From a virus (Duplodnaviria > Heunggongvirae > Uroviricota > Caudoviricetes): DNA of 41,104 nt. The stretch lies in the IMG/VR virus record IMGVR_UViG_2617270992_000014; one strand, given 5' to 3'. How positions within the stretch are numbered: position 1 is the first letter of the stretch; each line of letters starts with the position of its first letter. Under the pieces are notes generated by a model, which was given only the letters and a program-made list of their open reading frames with translations, was not told where the DNA came from and did no database searches. The position numbers were made by a program, and so were the translations under genes. This document shows, one piece after another, positions 1,419 to 16,789 of this stretch.

Positions 1419-3833
1419 TTAAAAATCAGCCTGACTCGGGATCAGTTTTTGCCAGATAGCTGAAACTTGTTTTGCCTGGTGACGTGCATCATCGAGTGCA
1501 TTGTGAGGTACACCTTCGAATGGAATAGTCATTCTGACATCAAAGCCAATGGAATTTCCCAGTTCAACAATTGTGCGTACATCGCGATCGTTGCAGTAGC
1601 GCCACGGGCAGGGGATGCCCTGTCGTTCATATGAACGGCGTAAAATTACGTTGTCGAAGTTGGCTCCATTTCCCCAGACTCGAACATAAAATCCACAGGA
1701 GTTTTCATCTATAAATTCCCGCAATTGCAGTAGTGCATCATCTAACGGAATTTCATCGGTCAGAATGGCAGATTGCGCCTCACGTGATTGCTTAAGCCAC
1801 CATTTAATGACGTCACGATCAATGACTCCGCCAGCAGTATCCAGATCGATGGTCTTGCTAAACTCCGGCCCCATCTCTCCGGTCTGCGGATCGAAAAATA
1901 TTGCACCTAATGAGATAATCGGGGCGTCGGGATTTTTTCCCATGGTTTCAAGGTCGATCATCAGGTGGTGCCGCACTCTGCTGGTGGATGTGATAACGTG
2001 ATGACCGTTCACCGCAATTAAGGGATCTGCTGTCTCGCCAGTTTCACTATCGCTGGCGTGGTCCTGAGCGCTGCCAGCATTCTCATTGTGCGGATGTTCA
2101 GCGCCTTCCATTTCCTCCGGATCATTTTCCTTAGCTTCAACCTGATTCTCTTCATCGAATATTTCTTGGTATGTTGCGTCGCCCATCACCGCACCACAGT
2201 CAGGGCAGTTACCCCCGCCAGTCTGGCCGCAGGCATTGCAGGCTATTTCCGGTTCCTGTTGCACTACTGGCTCAGGTTGTTTCACATCCGGGCTGTTTTT
2301 TTCCGTTTCTGGCTGGTTCTGGTACACAGAATCGCGAGTCTGGATCCCCTTCACCCATTTCGGATCGTTCGGGTCGCTAATCCCTGCAACAAATTCACCA
2401 CGTGATACTGCAAGCAGCTGATTGGCGTCAGGCTGGCTGATATTGGCTGCCTGCATAATTTTGTTTACTTCGTCAGCGGTAACTTTTACCTGATTAACCG
2501 GATCTATCTGTGCCTGAGCATCCAGCGATTGCGTGTCCTGGCGATGTTCAGTTGCATTCGGTTCCATTGTTTCAGCCGTTGCCTGTTCATCTGCCATTGC
2601 GTCAGACGGTTGTGATTTTTCCACATTATTTTTTTCTTCTTCTGTTTCGCGTTCAGCAGCCAGTTCGCGGTTAACTTCTTCCAGGATATCTTTTTCCGGC
2701 GTATGCCGGGCAGCTGTGAGAGTTTCCTTGCTGGGGTTCTCGTGATCAGTCTCTGTTAAATAGGCGTTGATATACCCCTGAAGACGTCCCGGGTAATGAT
2801 AAAACTCAGGGTGTGCGCTCCGGATAAGTGCAAAAATAGCGGCGCGGGAATAATCCAGGATACCCGGGATTGCGCGAAGTGCTGCGGACCATTCTTTGAA
2901 CGGACTTTCTTTCTTCCGGACGATTTCTTTTGCGCGACGATAAACGCTGCCCGGAATTTCATAAATATTAAAATCCATCGGAAGTGTGGCCGCTGCAATC
3001 TCCACATCCAGCGTATCGAAGGTGTGTACTAAATTCGGATTGCGATCGGTTTTGTTCCCTCCACCGGCATTAGCACCGGAAGCCGTGCGGGTGATGCGTG
3101 AAACACGATTTCCTTTCATCCACTCTTTTGTCAGCAGACCGCGATCGGTGTAGTCAGCGCCCAGGTATGCTTCGAAAAAAGCAGTCATCAGTCCCAGGTC
3201 TGAATTACCAGGATTAGGGAAAACTTTGTCAGTGTCACGAACCAGTTTGTGGAGATCGCGAATTTCCAGCGGTTCGAGTTGCGCTGCTTTATTTGAGATG
3301 GCCAGCGCGGTAACGGCGGGAAGTTTTTCATCCTGTGCGTTATGTAATGCGCGTAGTTCGCCCCGCGAAACGTGTGTGATCGGTTTTTCGCTGCCGTGCT
3401 GTGCCAGCCATCGAACAGGCAGAATCTGACCTGAAACCGGCAGGAGCATATTCTCCTCAATCTCAGCCATGTCTTCGCCGTTGACGTTGGTATTGTCAGT
3501 GCTGGCTGGTTTATCCTGAACAGAGGGCGAGGGCGCGATAAGCACCATTGTGATACCATCTTCCCCGCCTTTTTCGTATCGGTTGCAGAATTCGGTATCA
3601 AACACGCCTTCCGGAGGAAGGTCATTCACAACGGGTAAATGGACGCGAACAGGTTTTTTAAAATCCTCTTCGTCAAATCCTGCATCGTCCATTGCGACAA
3701 CACCGCGTGATATTGCAACCGATAATTTTTTTGCTGTGCGCCAGTAAAAACCGCCTTTAATCCCAAGACGTTTTCTGACTTTGTCATTTTTGGCTTCGTA
3801 ATACAGTGCAATTTCTTCTTTATCAGTGCTCAT
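1419..3833 (-). CDS. Large multidomain early protein with C-terminal DEDDh (DnaQ-like) 3'-5' exonuclease domain, central Cys4 zinc-ribbon and acidic low-complexity linker
   Basis: 804-aa ORF. C-terminal about 190 aa shows motifs IDLETMG, NGANFDNVIL and HNALDDARH consistent with DEDDh exonuclease motifs I-III. CNACGQTGGGNCPDCG is a zinc-ribbon motif. N-terminal about 550 aa unrecognised. Confidence 0.7.
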   Translation of the reverse strand: MSTDKEEIALYYEAKNDKVRKRLGIKGGFYWRTAKKLSVAISRGVVAMDDAGFDEEDFKKPVRVHLPVVNDLPPEGVFDTEFCNRYEKGGEDGITMVLIAPSPSVQDKPASTDNTNVNGEDMAEIEENMLLPVSGQILPVRWLAQHGSEKPITHVSRGELRALHNAQDEKLPAVTALAISNKAAQLEPLEIRDLHKLVRDTDKVFPNPGNSDLGLMTAFFEAYLGADYTDRGLLTKEWMKGNRVSRITRTASGANAGGGNKTDRNPNLVHTFDTLDVEIAAATLPMDFNIYEIPGSVYRRAKEIVRKKESPFKEWSAALRAIPGILDYSRAAIFALIRSAHPEFYHYPGRLQGYINAYLTETDHENPSKETLTAARHTPEKDILEEVNRELAAERETEEEKNNVEKSQPSDAMADEQATAETMEPNATEHRQDTQSLDAQAQIDPVNQVKVTADEVNKIMQAANISQPDANQLLAVSRGEFVAGISDPNDPKWVKGIQTRDSVYQNQPETEKNSPDVKQPEPVVQQEPEIACNACGQTGGGNCPDCGAVMGDATYQEIFDEENQVEAKENDPEEMEGAEHPHNENAGSAQDHASDSETGETADPLIAVNGHHVITSTSRVRHHLMIDLETMGKNPDAPIISLGAIFFDPQTGEMGPEFSKTIDLDTAGGVIDRDVIKWWLKQSREAQSAILTDEIPLDDALLQLREFIDENSCGFYVRVWGNGANFDNVILRRSYERQGIPCPWRYCNDRDVRTIVELGNSIGFDVRMTIPFEGVPHNALDDARHQAKQVSAIWQKLIPSQADF

Positions 3834-5021: not shown

Positions 5022-5240
5022 TTAACGTGGGTATGTAATCATTCTGGCAATGCTTAATGCCGCTGCTTTTTCCAGTCTGGTGATATCCTGCTCCAGAGCG
5101 GACAGATTTTCAGCCTGCTTAGCCCTGGCTTCATTGGCCCATTTCAGATCCTGCGCTGCATTAATTTTCTGGCGCATCCACTCATAAAGTTCATCATCGG
5201 TATAGCCTGGTGCGATGATAGTGGGTTCTGGTTTCTGCAT
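5022..5240 (-). CDS. Hypothetical small early protein
   Basis: 72-aa ORF in the leftward early operon; charged, helical-looking; function unknown. Confidence 0.45.
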   Translation of the reverse strand: MQKPEPTIIAPGYTDDELYEWMRQKINAAQDLKWANEARAKQAENLSALEQDITRLEKAAALSIARMITYPR

Positions 5241-12242: not shown

Positions 12243-12453
12243 AAACGGTTTGCGGGAAAAAGGGAGTTAAGTAAAATTGCTGCGGGTGCTTGAGGCTATC
12301 TGTCTCAGGCATGAACACCAAAAGGCAGATAGAGAAAAGCCCCAGTTAACATTACGCGTCCTGCAAGACGCTTAACATTAATCTGAGGCCCAATCTATGT
12401 CTCACAAATGTAGGTTAGCCTCTTACGCGCCGAAAGGCAAGGAGAAGCAGGCT

Positions 12454-12609
12454 ATGAAGCAGCAAAAGGCGATGTTAATCGTCCTGATCGTCATCTGTTT
12501 AACCGTCATAGCGACGGTACTGGTAACGAGGAAAGACCTCTGCGAGGTACGAATCCGAACCGGCCAGACGGAGGTCGCTGTCTTCACAGCTTACGAACCT
12601 GAGGAGTAA
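12454..12609 (+). CDS. hok: Hok/Gef-family type I toxin (small membrane peptide)
   Basis: MKQQKAMLIVLIVICLTVIATVLVTRKDLCEVRIRTGQTEVAVFTAYEPEE is near-identical in pattern to HokD/RelF-type toxins as recalled; AAGGAG upstream. The track ORF extends upstream to 12397 in the same frame. Confidence 0.8.
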   Translation: MKQQKAMLIVLIVICLTVIATVLVTRKDLCEVRIRTGQTEVAVFTAYEPEE

Positions 12610-14710: not shown

Positions 14711-15076
14711 ATGACTGAACGCATAGAATTTGTTTTGCCTTACCCGCCGACGGTGAACACCTACTGGCGACGTCGTGGCAGTACATATTTTGTATCAAAA
14801 GCCGGTGAGCGTTATCGCCGTGATGTGGCGCTCATTGTTCGCCAGCAGCGACTGAAATTGAACCTGTCCGGAAGGCTGGCAATAAAAATTATTGCAGAGC
14901 CGCCGGATAAGCGCCGTCGGGACCTGGACAATATTCTGAAAGCACCACTGGATGCACTGACACATGCGGGGCTGCTCATAGACGATGAGCAGTTTGATGA
15001 AATCAATATTGTGCGCGGTCAGGTCGTTCCTGGTGGTCGGTTGGGGATAAAAATCACAGGGCTGGAGTGCGCATGA
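14711..15076 (+). CDS. rusA: RusA Holliday-junction resolvase
   Basis: 121-aa ORF; PYPPTVNTYWRRRG, RRRDLDNILKAPLDAL and GGRLGIKIT correspond to conserved RusA segments as recalled. Confidence 0.85.
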   Translation: MTERIEFVLPYPPTVNTYWRRRGSTYFVSKAGERYRRDVALIVRQQRLKLNLSGRLAIKIIAEPPDKRRRDLDNILKAPLDALTHAGLLIDDEQFDEINIVRGQVVPGGRLGIKITGLECA

Positions 15077-15762
15077 ATAACCAGTATTTACAGTTTGTGC
15101 GTGAACAGCTCATTATCGCCACCGCCGATTTGAGTGGAGCAACAAAAGGTCAGCTTGAAGCCTGGCAGGAGAATGCCATGTTTGATACAGGGCGTTACAG
15201 GCGTAAAAAAATCCGGTACCGCGATGAAGTGACCGGAAAAATGATCACGCGGGATAATCCACCAATCCCGGGGAAACAATCGCTGGCGAAGGGGACGTCA
15301 ATTCCTCTGGTAAGTCAGGTTGAGTTTTCGACATCATCATGGCGACGGGCAGTTCTGTCTCTTGAAGAACATCATAAAGCCTGGTTGTTGTGGTGTTACA
15401 GCGGAAATATTTGCTGGGAACACCAGATCGCGATAACACAGTGGGCATGGGAAGAGTTTAAGGCTCATTCTGGCAACAGGAAAATTGCAGAGAAAACACG
15501 GGAACGCCTGAAAAAATTAATCTGGCTGGCGGCGCAGGATGTGAAGAGCGAGCTGGCTGGGAGTGAGACTTATGAATATCAGGAACTGGCTGAATTGATG
15601 GGGGTTGCTAAATCCACATGGACAGAGACATACCGACCTCGCTGGGAGATTATGCGTGACTGTGTTACAGGCCTGGACAAAGATGCGCTTATATCGGCAA
15701 TGCACTTACGTTCACAACAAAAGGTATCTAATACCAGGTTAAATATTGCAAAACCGAACTGA
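15073..15762 (+). CDS. Late-gene antiterminator Q (82/Qin-type family)
   Basis: About 230-aa ORF directly downstream of rusA (ATGA overlap), followed by a strong intrinsic terminator as expected for the pR'/tR' region. Family assignment from size, position and partial motif recollection. Confidence 0.7.
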   Translation: MNNQYLQFVREQLIIATADLSGATKGQLEAWQENAMFDTGRYRRKKIRYRDEVTGKMITRDNPPIPGKQSLAKGTSIPLVSQVEFSTSSWRRAVLSLEEHHKAWLLWCYSGNICWEHQIAITQWAWEEFKAHSGNRKIAEKTRERLKKLIWLAAQDVKSELAGSETYEYQELAELMGVAKSTWTETYRPRWEIMRDCVTGLDKDALISAMHLRSQQKVSNTRLNIAKPN

Positions 15763-15826
15763 AAAGTGTATTTTGCGCATAAATCTGATATTTTGCCGAT
15801 TTTGTACGCGATGGCAAAGTAAGCAA

Positions 15827-15852
15827 GCCCCGCCGCTGAGCGGGTTTTTTTA
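15827..15852 (+). terminator. Intrinsic terminator downstream of Q (tR'-like)
   Basis: CCCGC-CGCTGA-GCGGG hairpin followed by a 7-T run, about 65-90 bp after the Q stop. Confidence 0.65.
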
Positions 15853-15897
15853 TGCCTGAAAAACGGTACAAGGGCGTTAAACACGCTGGAGGATTAA

Positions 15898-16134
15898 ATG
15901 GAAGAAAAGCAGCCTTATATTTTCAATCCGGGTATGTCCATGACAGAACTGCAGACATGGCTGGAAAGGCAATCGATGGCAGTATCTTGTTTTAATAAAC
16001 TGGTTGAGGAAAAAGCCGCTATCGAGAAGCGGCTTGAGGAGATTAATCGATATCTTGATTTTTACGCATCGCGAATTTCTGAAGAAAAGTTGAGTTTTGT
16101 TCAGGAGCCCAGTCCTGATCTGACCAGTGAGTAG
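15898..16134 (+). CDS. Hypothetical coiled-coil-like small protein
   Basis: 78-aa ORF with GGAGGA 6 nt upstream of the ATG; 3' end overlaps a convergent minus-strand ORF. Confidence 0.4.
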   Translation: MEEKQPYIFNPGMSMTELQTWLERQSMAVSCFNKLVEEKAAIEKRLEEINRYLDFYASRISEEKLSFVQEPSPDLTSE

Positions 16135-16513
16135 TATCAGTATGTGTGACAGGCAAATTAAGCCCAGTAAGAAACTCGGCAGCTTCTTCGCACATATTAT
16201 CTGGCGTCAGGTACTCTGCAATAACAAAAAGACTGTCACGCAGGGAGAGTTTGCGAATATCTTCCAGCTTCCATTTTGTTATCCTGAAAATCATATGGTG
16301 TAGCGCCTTTCTGTTATCCAGGTGGTAGTGAAGGTGCGCATTTTTTCTTCGGTATTCTTCCAGTACGCATTCCAGCGTAAAAATCTGTCCGATTCGATAC
16401 CACGCTTCACGGTACTGCTGAATGGTCATGTCGAGTAAGACATGCTCTGGAATGTTATTGTTCTGGCATACCTTGAGCTTTATTGCTTGTAGTAAATTGG
16501 AGTAGTCACTCAT
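16043..16513 (-). CDS. Hypothetical protein encoded opposite to the late operon
   Basis: 156-aa ORF, AGAGG 5 nt upstream of the ATG on the minus strand; AT-rich; no recognisable domain. Confidence 0.5.
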   Translation of the reverse strand: MSDYSNLLQAIKLKVCQNNNIPEHVLLDMTIQQYREAWYRIGQIFTLECVLEEYRRKNAHLHYHLDNRKALHHMIFRITKWKLEDIRKLSLRDSLFVIAEYLTPDNMCEEAAEFLTGLNLPVTHTDTTHWSDQDWAPEQNSTFLQKFAMRKNQDID

Positions 16514-16628
16514 AAAAACCTCTGGCTTGATGTTGTTACTTTTGGCGAATTAACGATATCAAAAACGAAAAGTGTAGTTAATACAATGCAATACAATGGA
16601 AGCATGATTTACTTTGCGCTTTGACCCT

Positions 16629-16652
16629 GGGCTCGCTACGGCGGGCCTTTTT
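16629..16652 (+). terminator. Terminator-like hairpin inside the Q-to-lysis island
   Basis: GGCTCGC-TACG-GCGGGCC (7-bp stem with one G-U pair) followed by TTTTT. Confidence 0.4.
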
Positions 16653-16789
16653 CATATTCGCGCCACGCCCGGCGCACATCAAAAACCACAGAGCCTTTCA
16701 GGGGTGAGCTTACGGGATGGTCAGTGTGACTTTCTCTGTGGGCTGGTCACCTCCGGGCGCAGGCTCACCCACTAAAAGGAAAAGTCACG

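Follow-up and report, generated by a model that had tools for sequence, protein, structure and literature searches.

A covarying family of RNA leaders in lambdoid prophages, probably acting as a default-off translational gate for accessory late genes

Introduction

What do the 276 nucleotides (nt) do that lie directly ahead of a TerB-like gene in the late region of a lambdoid prophage? The stretch, positions 16514-16789 of a 41,104-nt viral DNA (IMG/VR record IMGVR_UViG_2617270992_000014, Caudoviricetes; the whole DNA is hereafter called the window), was described in an initial annotation as one structured leader with a terminator-like hairpin and an 8-bp inverted repeat, which could be a regulatory RNA structure or a protein-binding site that controls the TerB-like island independently of the late operon. 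Judged from sequence comparison, the stretch is a composite of a gene-specific spacer, a terminator and a 133-nt folded mRNA leader, and this leader belongs to a widespread, previously unannotated structured-RNA family that has no match in Rfam 15; no earlier description of it was found in the searchable literature. We propose, as the probable reading, that 16657-16789 is the 5' leader of the TerB-like mRNA and a portable element placed before accessory genes in the Q-dependent late operon, where it would act as a default-off translational gate.

Results

The conserved leader lies downstream of a terminator and ends at the start codon

Homology of the 276-nt stretch was searched in 5,426 complete E. 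coli genomes, and matches, representing the TerB-type leader, were found in 218 of them. At least 80% of the query was covered in only three genomes; all other E. coli matches begin at query position 113 or later, mostly at 117 (window 16630) and some at 128 or 144, and the homology breakpoints in other genomes fall at 16630, 16644 or 16657. The upstream portion, 16514-16628, is the spacer of an ECs1072 module, shared by only 3 of the 5,426 genomes, and travels with the neighbouring minus-strand ECs1072-family gene. A single 276-bp leader, as first annotated, is thus not what is conserved: the leader proper covers only 16657-16789 on the + strand, 133 nt up to the TerB-like ATG. This core is conserved about as well as coding sequence, its 3' end always falls at the ATG, and the invariant unit starts at GCGCCACGCC (16660) and stops at the ATG. 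The stretch is probably untranslated, as had been stated: overlapping open reading frames (ORFs) are only short and mechanical, and homologues differ by indels of 1-3 nt, which argues against coding. Two small ORFs, 16614-16775 and 16717-16833, were ruled out since the homologue indels are not multiples of three.

Immediately upstream, a terminator scan detects an intrinsic terminator on the + strand at 16629-16652, GGGCTCGC-TACG-GCGGGCCT followed by a T-run. The stem (16629-16648) has eight pairs, six of them G-C, around a 4-nt loop and is followed by TTTTT, the sequence features of an intrinsic terminator, so the hairpin reported at this position is present. In relatives it closes the tRNA cluster of a prophage, and in two loci (L094 and L095) its homologue begins 14 nt past a tRNA-Arg gene, which marks the hairpin as the probable terminator belonging to the module upstream. 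The corresponding place is taken in relatives by at least five different terminator hairpins, one group (L020 type) having none, and a T-run lies upstream of the leader in 144 of 175 family members.

The same leader precedes unrelated accessory genes

A covariance model, R1, found a diverged second copy of the leader in locus L060, before a gene for a 231-aa ANT/KilAC protein. The two copies of this locus lie at 2859-3006 and 5089-5236, one preceding the TerB gene and the other the ANT/KilAC gene. Among loci of relatives of the ANT/KilAC protein, a leader ends at the ATG in 64 of 80, and three more matches occupy a second position downstream of that gene. In L201, L203 and L237 a further copy lies ~1.4 kb downstream, and single prophages hold two or three diverged copies before different genes.

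An exact-pattern scan (CCTTTCAG..GAGC..CTAAAAGG) returned at least 120 loci; among the pattern matches listed, the genes after the leader encode KilA-N/ORF11CD3, Rha, AntA, T5orf172/MUG113, HNH and TerB-like proteins. The leader precedes at least seven unrelated gene families, and identical helix sequences occur before unrelated proteins. BLAST searches place the Rha-type leader in 954 of the 5,426 complete E. coli genomes, in the phages phi80, HK620, HK106, HK639, CUS-3, epsilon34, g341c and Sf101 and in many Shiga toxin (Stx) phages of the Stx1a and Stx2a types, as well as in phages of Klebsiella, Enterobacter, Hafnia and Providencia; roughly one complete E. coli genome in five carries the family. 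In phi80 the leader stands directly before rha and follows Rz and a terminator. Rfam 15 models run against eight leader-family loci at the gathering threshold matched only tRNAs, and against 16480-16860 at E up to 10 they gave only chance-level matches of at most 16 bits.

The relatives also carry insertions and annotation problems at this site. The IS110-family element ISEc20 is inserted in the leader right after CCTTTCGGGGG (~window 16704) in L197 (3539-4997; LC567822, PPompW phages), and TerB and the lysis genes are missing downstream of it. A gene for an HNH+AP2 endonuclease (PF13392, PF00847) occupies 809-1366 of L116 and L192; it follows the terminator, P1 (the first leader hairpin, described below) and AACCACAG, and a second copy of P1 and the remainder of the leader come after it, which suggests homing into the element. 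The annotated start of phi80 rha (JX871397 position 43739; L398 2593) is a GTG inside the leader, 36 nt before a conserved Shine-Dalgarno (SD)-ATG, and PGAP "Rha family" coding sequences in RefSeq E. coli genomes likewise overlap the leader; these are probably start-codon mis-calls, affecting hundreds of genomes.

Four to six helices of the leader covary

The 276-nt stretch folds better than shuffled versions of itself (z = -3.2), of which 1 in 200 did as well. A single perfect 8-bp repeat within ~60 nt is, by estimate, expected ~0.25 times by chance in 276 nt; because a lone repeat is therefore unremarkable, the weight of the structure rests on conservation and covariation in homologues. The TerB-linked leaders, 78 unique sequences drawn from E. 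coli, Klebsiella, Enterobacter, Citrobacter and related genomes, were compared in helix-by-helix haplotype tables; the family set comprises 175 unique members in 34 sequence types less than 90% identical. All-against-all column covariation was dropped as too noisy owing to lineage effects, and the haplotype tables were used instead together with an alignment-free cognate test, in which the duplex energy of each 5' segment with its own 3' region is compared with that obtained with the 3' regions of other types (5,000 permutations).

Along the RNA the segments follow in the order terminator, P1 5' strand, P1 loop (A), P1 3' strand, A-rich linker, P2 5' strand, anti-SD block, P4 5' strand, hairpin P3 (whose 3' half is segment D), P2 3' strand, segment A', P4 3' strand with the SD, segment D' and AUG; all features given below lie on the + strand. 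Four of the helices were put to the cognate test, and each prefers its own partner, with no permutation among the 5,000 doing as well: the mean values, cognate versus non-cognate, are -11.1 and -7.2 kcal/mol for P2, -17.1 and -15.2 for P0, -25.7 and -18.5 for P4, and -9.1 and -7.3 for D:D'. Nine control segment pairs showed no comparable advantage, the lowest reaching 161 of 5,000 permutations. P1 and P3 are supported by compensatory changes.

The repeat first noticed, GGGTGAGC (16702-16709) and GCTCACCC (16763-16770), is present and extends to 13 nt with 85% complementarity. It forms the core of P4, whose 5' strand GGGTGAGCTTACG (16702-16714) pairs with 16758-16770; in the helix table the core is 16702-11 with 16761-70. 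The 3' strand, CGCAGGCTCACCC-A-CT-A-AAAGG (16758-16779), ends in the SD sequence AAAGG (16775-79). On the 5' side the core is preceded by an almost invariant anti-SD block, CCUUUCAG (16694-16701), in which CCUUU pairs with AAAGG at 16775-79 and AG with CU at 16772-73. P4 thereby comprises 5+2+10+2 = 19 pairs in the window, broken by small (1-nt) interruptions; in L201 it runs for 20-21 pairs without a break. Core variants include AAAUGAGC/GCUCAUUU, GGUAGAGC/GCUCUAUC and GAUGAGCCUU/AAGGUUCAUC, and the inner end varies as GAGCTT/AGGCTC, GAGCCA/TGGCTC and GAGCCTTA/TAAGGCTC. The anti-SD:SD segment itself changes in a compensatory manner (CUUUU/AAGAG, GG/CC, UCUUA/UAAGG, CCUA/UAGG), and it is interrupted by C16699, which faces A16774 in all 34 types and makes up 34 of the 35 C.A 1x1 mismatches counted.

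Two pairs of repeats had been overlooked. The first, CCACAGAG (16686-16693) with CTCTGTGG (16734-16741), forms P2, whose 5' strand abuts the anti-SD block directly. Compensatory variants of P2 include CCAUGGAG/CUCCAUGG, CCGCAGA/UCUGCGG and CCACAA/UUGUGG and, in DNA letters among the TerB-linked leaders, CCATGGAG/CTCCATGG, with at least 15 variants family-wide. The second, CGCCCGG (16666-16672) with CCGGGCG (16753-16759, segment A'), forms P0. Its 5' strand is the loop of P1 plus 2 nt, and its 3' strand lies just 5' of the P4 3' strand. P1 is a hairpin at 16660-16675 with loop ACGCCC, in which GCGCC (16660-64) pairs with GGCGC (16671-75); compensatory variants are CCGCC/GGCGG, ACGCC/GGCGT and GCGTC/GACGC and, in the wider family, GUGUC/GACAC and GCACU/GGUGC. 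For P0 at least 13 distinct complementary pairs occur over the types, including CGCCCGG/CCGGGCG, CGCUCGG/CUGAGCG, UGCCCGG/CUGGGCA, UUUCUCC/GGAGAA, UCUCAC/GUGAGA, UCACCC/GGGUGA and UCCACCGG/CUGGUGGA, and one column pair reads CG in 41, UA in 36 and AU in one. In most types P0 leaves the first loop nucleotide of P1 unpaired, as H-type pseudoknots do, and is thus compatible with P1. The window thus carries both family hallmarks, a P1 loop complementary to the segment just 5' of the P4 3' strand, and a P2 5' strand that abuts a CCUUUCAG-like block pairing with the SD as the outer part of P4. Between P1 and P2 lies an A-rich single-stranded linker, ACATCAAAAA (16676-16685), whose length is variable in alignments.

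The GTGAC/GTCAC segments said to be enclosed by the repeat are real as well. Segment D, GTGACTTT (16726-16733), can pair with D', AAAGTCAC (16781-16788), which occupies the SD-AUG spacer, and the same region forms the hairpin GGTCA-gtg-TGACT, the central part of P3 (AUGGUCA-GUG-UGACUUU, 16717-16733). D is the 3' half of P3, so pairing with D' would be an alternative to pairing within P3. Compensatory changes occur in P3 at pairs 2, 3 and 7, and a wholly different GACG/CGUC hairpin takes its place in L009 and L116. D:D' also covers the AUG in other types; its variants include AUUACGUC/GACGUAAU and UUCGUC/GACGAA (in DNA letters ATTACGTC/GACGTAAT and TTCGTC/GACGAA), and among the type-specific pairs are UUUCGCUGA/UCAGCGAAA and UGUCGGAUG/AUAUCCGAUA.

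In model-fitted alignments, 95.4% of cells are paired for the P1+P4+P3 structure, with 15 pairs changed on both sides, and 95.3% for the P0+P2+D:D' structure, with 8 such pairs; neither value was reached in any of 500 shuffles, and slid controls are only 35-59% paired. Given a plain MAFFT alignment of 25 types, RNAalifold still finds P1 and the anti-SD:SD helix but nothing else, because the variable middle is misaligned in so diverse a set. The check called for at the outset, RNA folding with covariation across homologues, therefore shows that the pairing is conserved and that the repeat helix covaries in 34 types. A single nested structure was rejected: RNAalifold on close relatives gave P0+P2 and the single-sequence minimum free energy (MFE) fold gave P1+P4, neither of which explains all the covariation.

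Leaving out the conserved C16699.A16774 opposition, 34 G:U pairs stand against 5 A.C oppositions, and R1 scores the forward strand at 170 bits and the reverse strand at ~16 bits, which together identify + strand RNA as the functional molecule. The proposal of a regulatory RNA structure just 5' of the TerB-like start is accordingly borne out, the repeat being the core of a covarying helix of ~19 bp in 34 types with an anti-SD:SD outer end. Its counterpart, a protein-binding DNA site, is unlikely given this strand asymmetry and the occurrence of the same helix sequences before unrelated proteins.

Crossing helices suggest a gate that is closed by default

The leader lies between Q and the holin genes and ends at ATG 16790, the start codon of an accessory gene in the late region. 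No sigma-70-like sites were found on the + strand in 15600-17400, and no -35/-10 hexamers are conserved across the 34 types between the upstream terminator and the gene, where a moron would have its own promoter. Moreover, the P1 hairpin must be transcribed, since its loop covaries with a downstream segment. With no promoter found, a terminator upstream, P1 transcribed and the element placed between Q and the holin genes, Q-dependent read-through is the simplest route of expression; the suggested control independent of the late operon is unsupported, there being no + strand sigma-70-like site and, in most members, a terminator directly upstream. Transcription would enter from upstream and read through the terminator at 16629-16652, carried by Q-modified polymerase in the late operon, while the same terminator would otherwise shield the cassette and the lysis genes from upstream transcription.

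The MFE fold of the core consists of P1 and the long P4 hairpin, with the SD buried. P4 has an energy of -23 to -36 kcal/mol in most types. Of the 34 types, 29 sequester the SD in their full-length MFE, and in the nested model the window SD is more than 88% paired at 25-50 °C. In silico, P4 pairs CCUUU-C-AG-GGGUGAGCUU with AGGCUCACCC-A-CU-A-AAAGG and would thereby bury the SD. P2 stacked on D:D' has the layout of a classical H-type pseudoknot, D (16726-33) and the P2 3' strand (16734-41) being contiguous, and would bury the spacer and, in other types, the AUG. P0 would tie the 5' end to the SD-carrying strand. P4, P2 and D:D' all cross one another, and the P2 5' strand abuts the anti-SD block without a linker; from this geometry we infer that a complete P4 cannot coexist with P2 and D:D'. 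The leader would then have at least two alternative states, both predicted to be closed to the ribosome, and only P2 combined with the P3 hairpin would free the ribosome-binding site. Such a gate would allow little, or only conditional, synthesis of potentially harmful proteins. The gate might be opened in a co-transcriptional time window, by RNase III cutting P4 or by a trans-acting factor.

Several points weigh against a default-off gate. The transcript, its 5' end and the translational effect are predictions from sequence and in silico folding, and the choice between alternative states and one compact fold follows from geometry. P2 is absent from the nested MFE and appears in the MFEs of truncated, nascent-like RNAs of only 4 of the 34 types, so truncated transcripts give a simple kinetic model no support; the nested fold with P2 and P0 lies 10 kcal/mol above the P4 fold in energy. 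The offset of segment D from the anti-SD block varies, from +27 to +37 in most types and +51 in some, and some of the both-sides changes counted for P1+P4+P3 arise where L105 and L100 have slipped register in the model-fitted alignment. Expression of the gene is left unexplained if both states are off. Finally, the element sits at mosaic joints and is an insertion target, so it may have a role at the DNA level.

Alternative explanations

A factor-responsive switch would extend the gate and not contradict it: the crossing helix sets would form the two or three states of a sensor, and a ligand, temperature, a host or phage protein or a small RNA (sRNA) would choose the state that exposes the ribosome-binding site. 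We consider this unlikely. The mutually incompatible helices each covary, and P4 on the one side and P2 with D:D' on the other are mutually exclusive conserved helices of the kind found in riboswitches, ligand binding being putative. The nucleotides with dual roles or left unpaired, CCUUUCAG and the C.A opposition, do not vary; the pseudoknot at the P1 loop is of classical geometry; P2 (~-11 kcal/mol) equals or exceeds in stability the outer anti-SD:SD segment that it excludes (~-4 kcal/mol); and the linker is A-rich, as Hfq-binding sites often are. Yet no riboswitch or thermometer in Rfam 15 matches, the apical P3/D region is highly variable, unlike a ligand pocket, and no candidate ligand logic was found for antirepressor, Rha or TerB-like genes. 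The persistent pairing of the SD between 25 and 50 °C in the nested model is likewise unlike a thermometer. RNA thermometers of the fourU or ROSE type were rejected on the in silico nested partition function, in which the unpaired probability of the SD is 0.05 at 30 °C and still only 0.08 at 42 °C.

Less probable still is an element for RNase III or mRNA stability, in which P4 is cut, either separating the cassette mRNA and freeing the SD or destabilising the message. With 19 pairs in the window and 20-21 continuous pairs in L201, P4 offers about two turns of double-stranded RNA, and the element is part of a long polycistronic late transcript, where in relatives tRNA genes or a terminator immediately precede it. 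Cleavage, itself putative, would on its own leave the covariation of P0, P2 and D:D' unexplained; and because RNase III is constitutive, it would provide processing, not regulation.

The mosaic surroundings could also mean that the repeats act in DNA, as a homology patch or target site at which lambdoid phages swap accessory cassettes. The breakpoints at 16630, 16644 and 16657, the recurrence of one leader before at least seven unrelated gene families, and the HNH-AP2 gene and ISEc20 inserted in it (L116 and L192, and PPompW phages, respectively) fit such a junction. A recombination patch, however, should keep its sequence, whereas the helices change theirs and retain complementarity; the tolerance of G:U is strand-specific, the pairing involves the SD and the start codon, and shuffling more probably results from the leader being shared. 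We therefore regard a DNA-level junction as quite improbable.

Least credible is a promoter or operator of its own that would express the TerB-like island outside late-operon control, for instance in the lysogen: terminator-bounded cassettes do resemble morons and the A/T-rich linker after P1 is sometimes -10-like (by eye, TTCACA-N16-TATTAA in the phi80-type leader), but the + strand of 15600-17400 has no sigma-70-like site, the putative hexamers are not conserved across types, and a transcript starting past such a -10 would lack P1 and with it the loop that covaries with 16753-59.

Some specific identities were also considered and rejected, the first three by eye: a CRP site, since TGTGA-N6 does not fit; a LexA box, as the CTGT-N4-ACAG spacing is wrong; an IHF site, because ATCAA-like motifs lack the TTR part; and an HK022 put-type antiterminator RNA, since the element lies downstream of the adjacent terminator and has no promoter nearby. 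The Pas sRNAs were set aside too: PasA, PasC and PasD2 of E2348/69 gave only scattered 10-15-nt matches to the window in blastn-short (best E 0.01), none of them in 16514-16789.

Relation to known RNA controls and significance

Among lambdoid mRNA leaders, the RNase III-sensitive hairpin of the lambda N leader and the alternative structures of the cIII mRNA set translation through RNase III or a structural equilibrium. Like these, the present leader is predicted to form a long hairpin or alternative folds that occlude the ribosome-binding site of a regulatory gene. It differs in having no sequence or Rfam kinship with them, in lying in the late operon behind a terminator, in its four to six covarying helices including a hairpin-loop pseudoknot, and in being portable among unrelated genes, with a role for RNase III only putative. 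In the hok mRNA, with its metastable co-transcriptional hairpins, and the MS2 maturation-gene leader, successive mutually exclusive helices block translation of harmful proteins until a defined event. The likeness to the hok fold-back and the MS2 kinetic trap, closure through successive folds, is a functional analogy only; unlike in hok/sok, no antisense partner or 3' processing site was identified, and the sok of the prophage itself at 12284-12459 is unrelated. With the preQ1-II and SAM-II platforms the leader shares a putative H-type pseudoknot that would decide access to the SD and competing helices that are both conserved, whereas no invariant core resembling a ligand pocket was recognised, Rfam gives no match and the genes suggest no metabolite logic.

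Antirepressors are known targets of RNA control: P22 sar-ant, P1/P7 c4-icd/ant and Gifsy-1 IsrK-orf45-anrP use trans- or cis-antisense RNAs. The target class is alike, antirepressor, KilA and Rha-like functions that the leader too would keep silent at the RNA level, but the present leader is purely intramolecular as far as is visible, and the C4 and isrK models of Rfam do not match, either at the gathering threshold in the eight family loci or at E up to 10 in the window region.

If the gate operates as proposed, its consequences would reach beyond this prophage. Rha, antirepressor and KilA-type regulators can affect prophage induction and host killing, so translational control of the leader genes bears on lysogeny stability and on the behaviour of Stx phages. 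A large, strongly covarying RNA family absent from Rfam 15 is present in classic as well as Stx1 and Stx2 phages; its three mutually crossing covarying helices provide a concrete system for sequential or alternative RNA folding, and a shared leader may explain the free exchange of accessory genes at the borders of lysis cassettes. A bolder idea, which we think doubtful, is that the leader represents a new class of multi-state RNA switch (P4; P2 with D:D'; the P1-loop pseudoknot) that senses a cellular or phage signal and times or restricts the synthesis of Rha, antirepressor, KilA and TerB-like proteins across lambdoid phages, Stx phages included. The signal could be the speed of Q-modified polymerase, RNase III, an IHF-dependent factor, Hfq together with an sRNA, or a metabolite. 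Work by Henthorn and Friedman in 1995 reportedly linked rha of phi80 and P22 to IHF-deficient hosts; were the bolder idea true, such a switch could be the missing post-transcriptional layer behind the harm that rha is said to do to phi80 and P22 only in those hosts.

A further comparison is with the Pas sRNAs (PasA/C/D) of enteropathogenic E. coli prophages, which lie next to holin genes and are linked to TerB genes (PMC8550237; bioRxiv 10.64898/2026.05.13.724894). They share the prophage neighbourhood (Q, esterase, TerB, holin) with the leader; unlike it, they lie, in the case of PasA, on the strand opposite to the late genes, and their longest match in the window is 14 nt (E 0.01).

Neighbouring features of the window and its relatives

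Upstream of the leader, on the + strand, are a DUF968/NinG-like gene, RusA and the Q antiterminator (15067-15762, PF06323), in that order. The segment just past Q, 15781-15856, is 84% conserved with PPompW and Stx2 phages, has a strong terminator at its end and is likely the pR'/qut/tR' region. An intrinsic-terminator-like + strand hairpin, CCCGCCGCTGAGCGGG followed by T7, lies there at 15829-15852 (the hairpin itself 15829-15844), 67 nt past the Q stop codon, and may be the tR' of the late promoter region. The minus-strand ECs1072-family gene (16043-16513, as annotated in locus L001) lies between Q and the TerB cassette; its place is filled in relatives by tRNA-Thr/Gly or tRNA-Met/Arg/Arg clusters. 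This gene is antisense to late transcription, and late transcripts must cross it antisense. A repeat scan detects a tandem 10-mer, AATACAATGC/AATACAATGG, at 16580-16599 in the ECs1072-specific spacer, which may form part of the upstream region of the ECs1072 gene.

The regulated gene, at 16790-17215 on the + strand, encodes a TerB-like protein of 141 aa (PF05099). Downstream on the same strand follow a DUF3927 gene, two holin genes, an M15 endolysin gene and then HNH and small terminase genes; the profile matches for the lysis-side genes, TerB-like included, are PF05099, PF13064, PF16931, PF05449 and PF13539. TerB homologues 85-92% identical in other hosts (L010, L012, L144, L163, L128 and L175) have unrelated leaders, that of Erwinia (L012) being a different long hairpin, TTCTTTGAGCTGCGCCAG/CTGGCGCAGCATCAAAGAGAA.

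The terminator and P1 also occur together without the remainder of the leader: a module corresponding to 16630-16680 stands alone at 3001-3051 of L004, a Qin/DLP12-like prophage, followed by unrelated sequence and then the holin gene essD. Hence P1 moves not only with the leader but also with the terminator.

Several records related to the window carry unexpected hosts. "Actinobacillus phage vB_Apl-pPE4" (PP818812.1) is 93-96% identical to the enterobacterial prophage DNA of the window, and TerB genes 86-95% identical occur in records labelled as a Bacillota metagenome-assembled genome, Pseudomonas lundensis and Kocuria sabuli (L005, L010 and L016); host mislabelling or contamination is likely in these cases.

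The sole Rfam 15 match in the whole window is the sok antitoxin RNA (RF01794) at 12284-12459 on the + strand, which scores 118.8 bits against a gathering score of 59 and, at the level of sequence, indicates a hok/sok-type toxin-antitoxin locus in the early region of the prophage.

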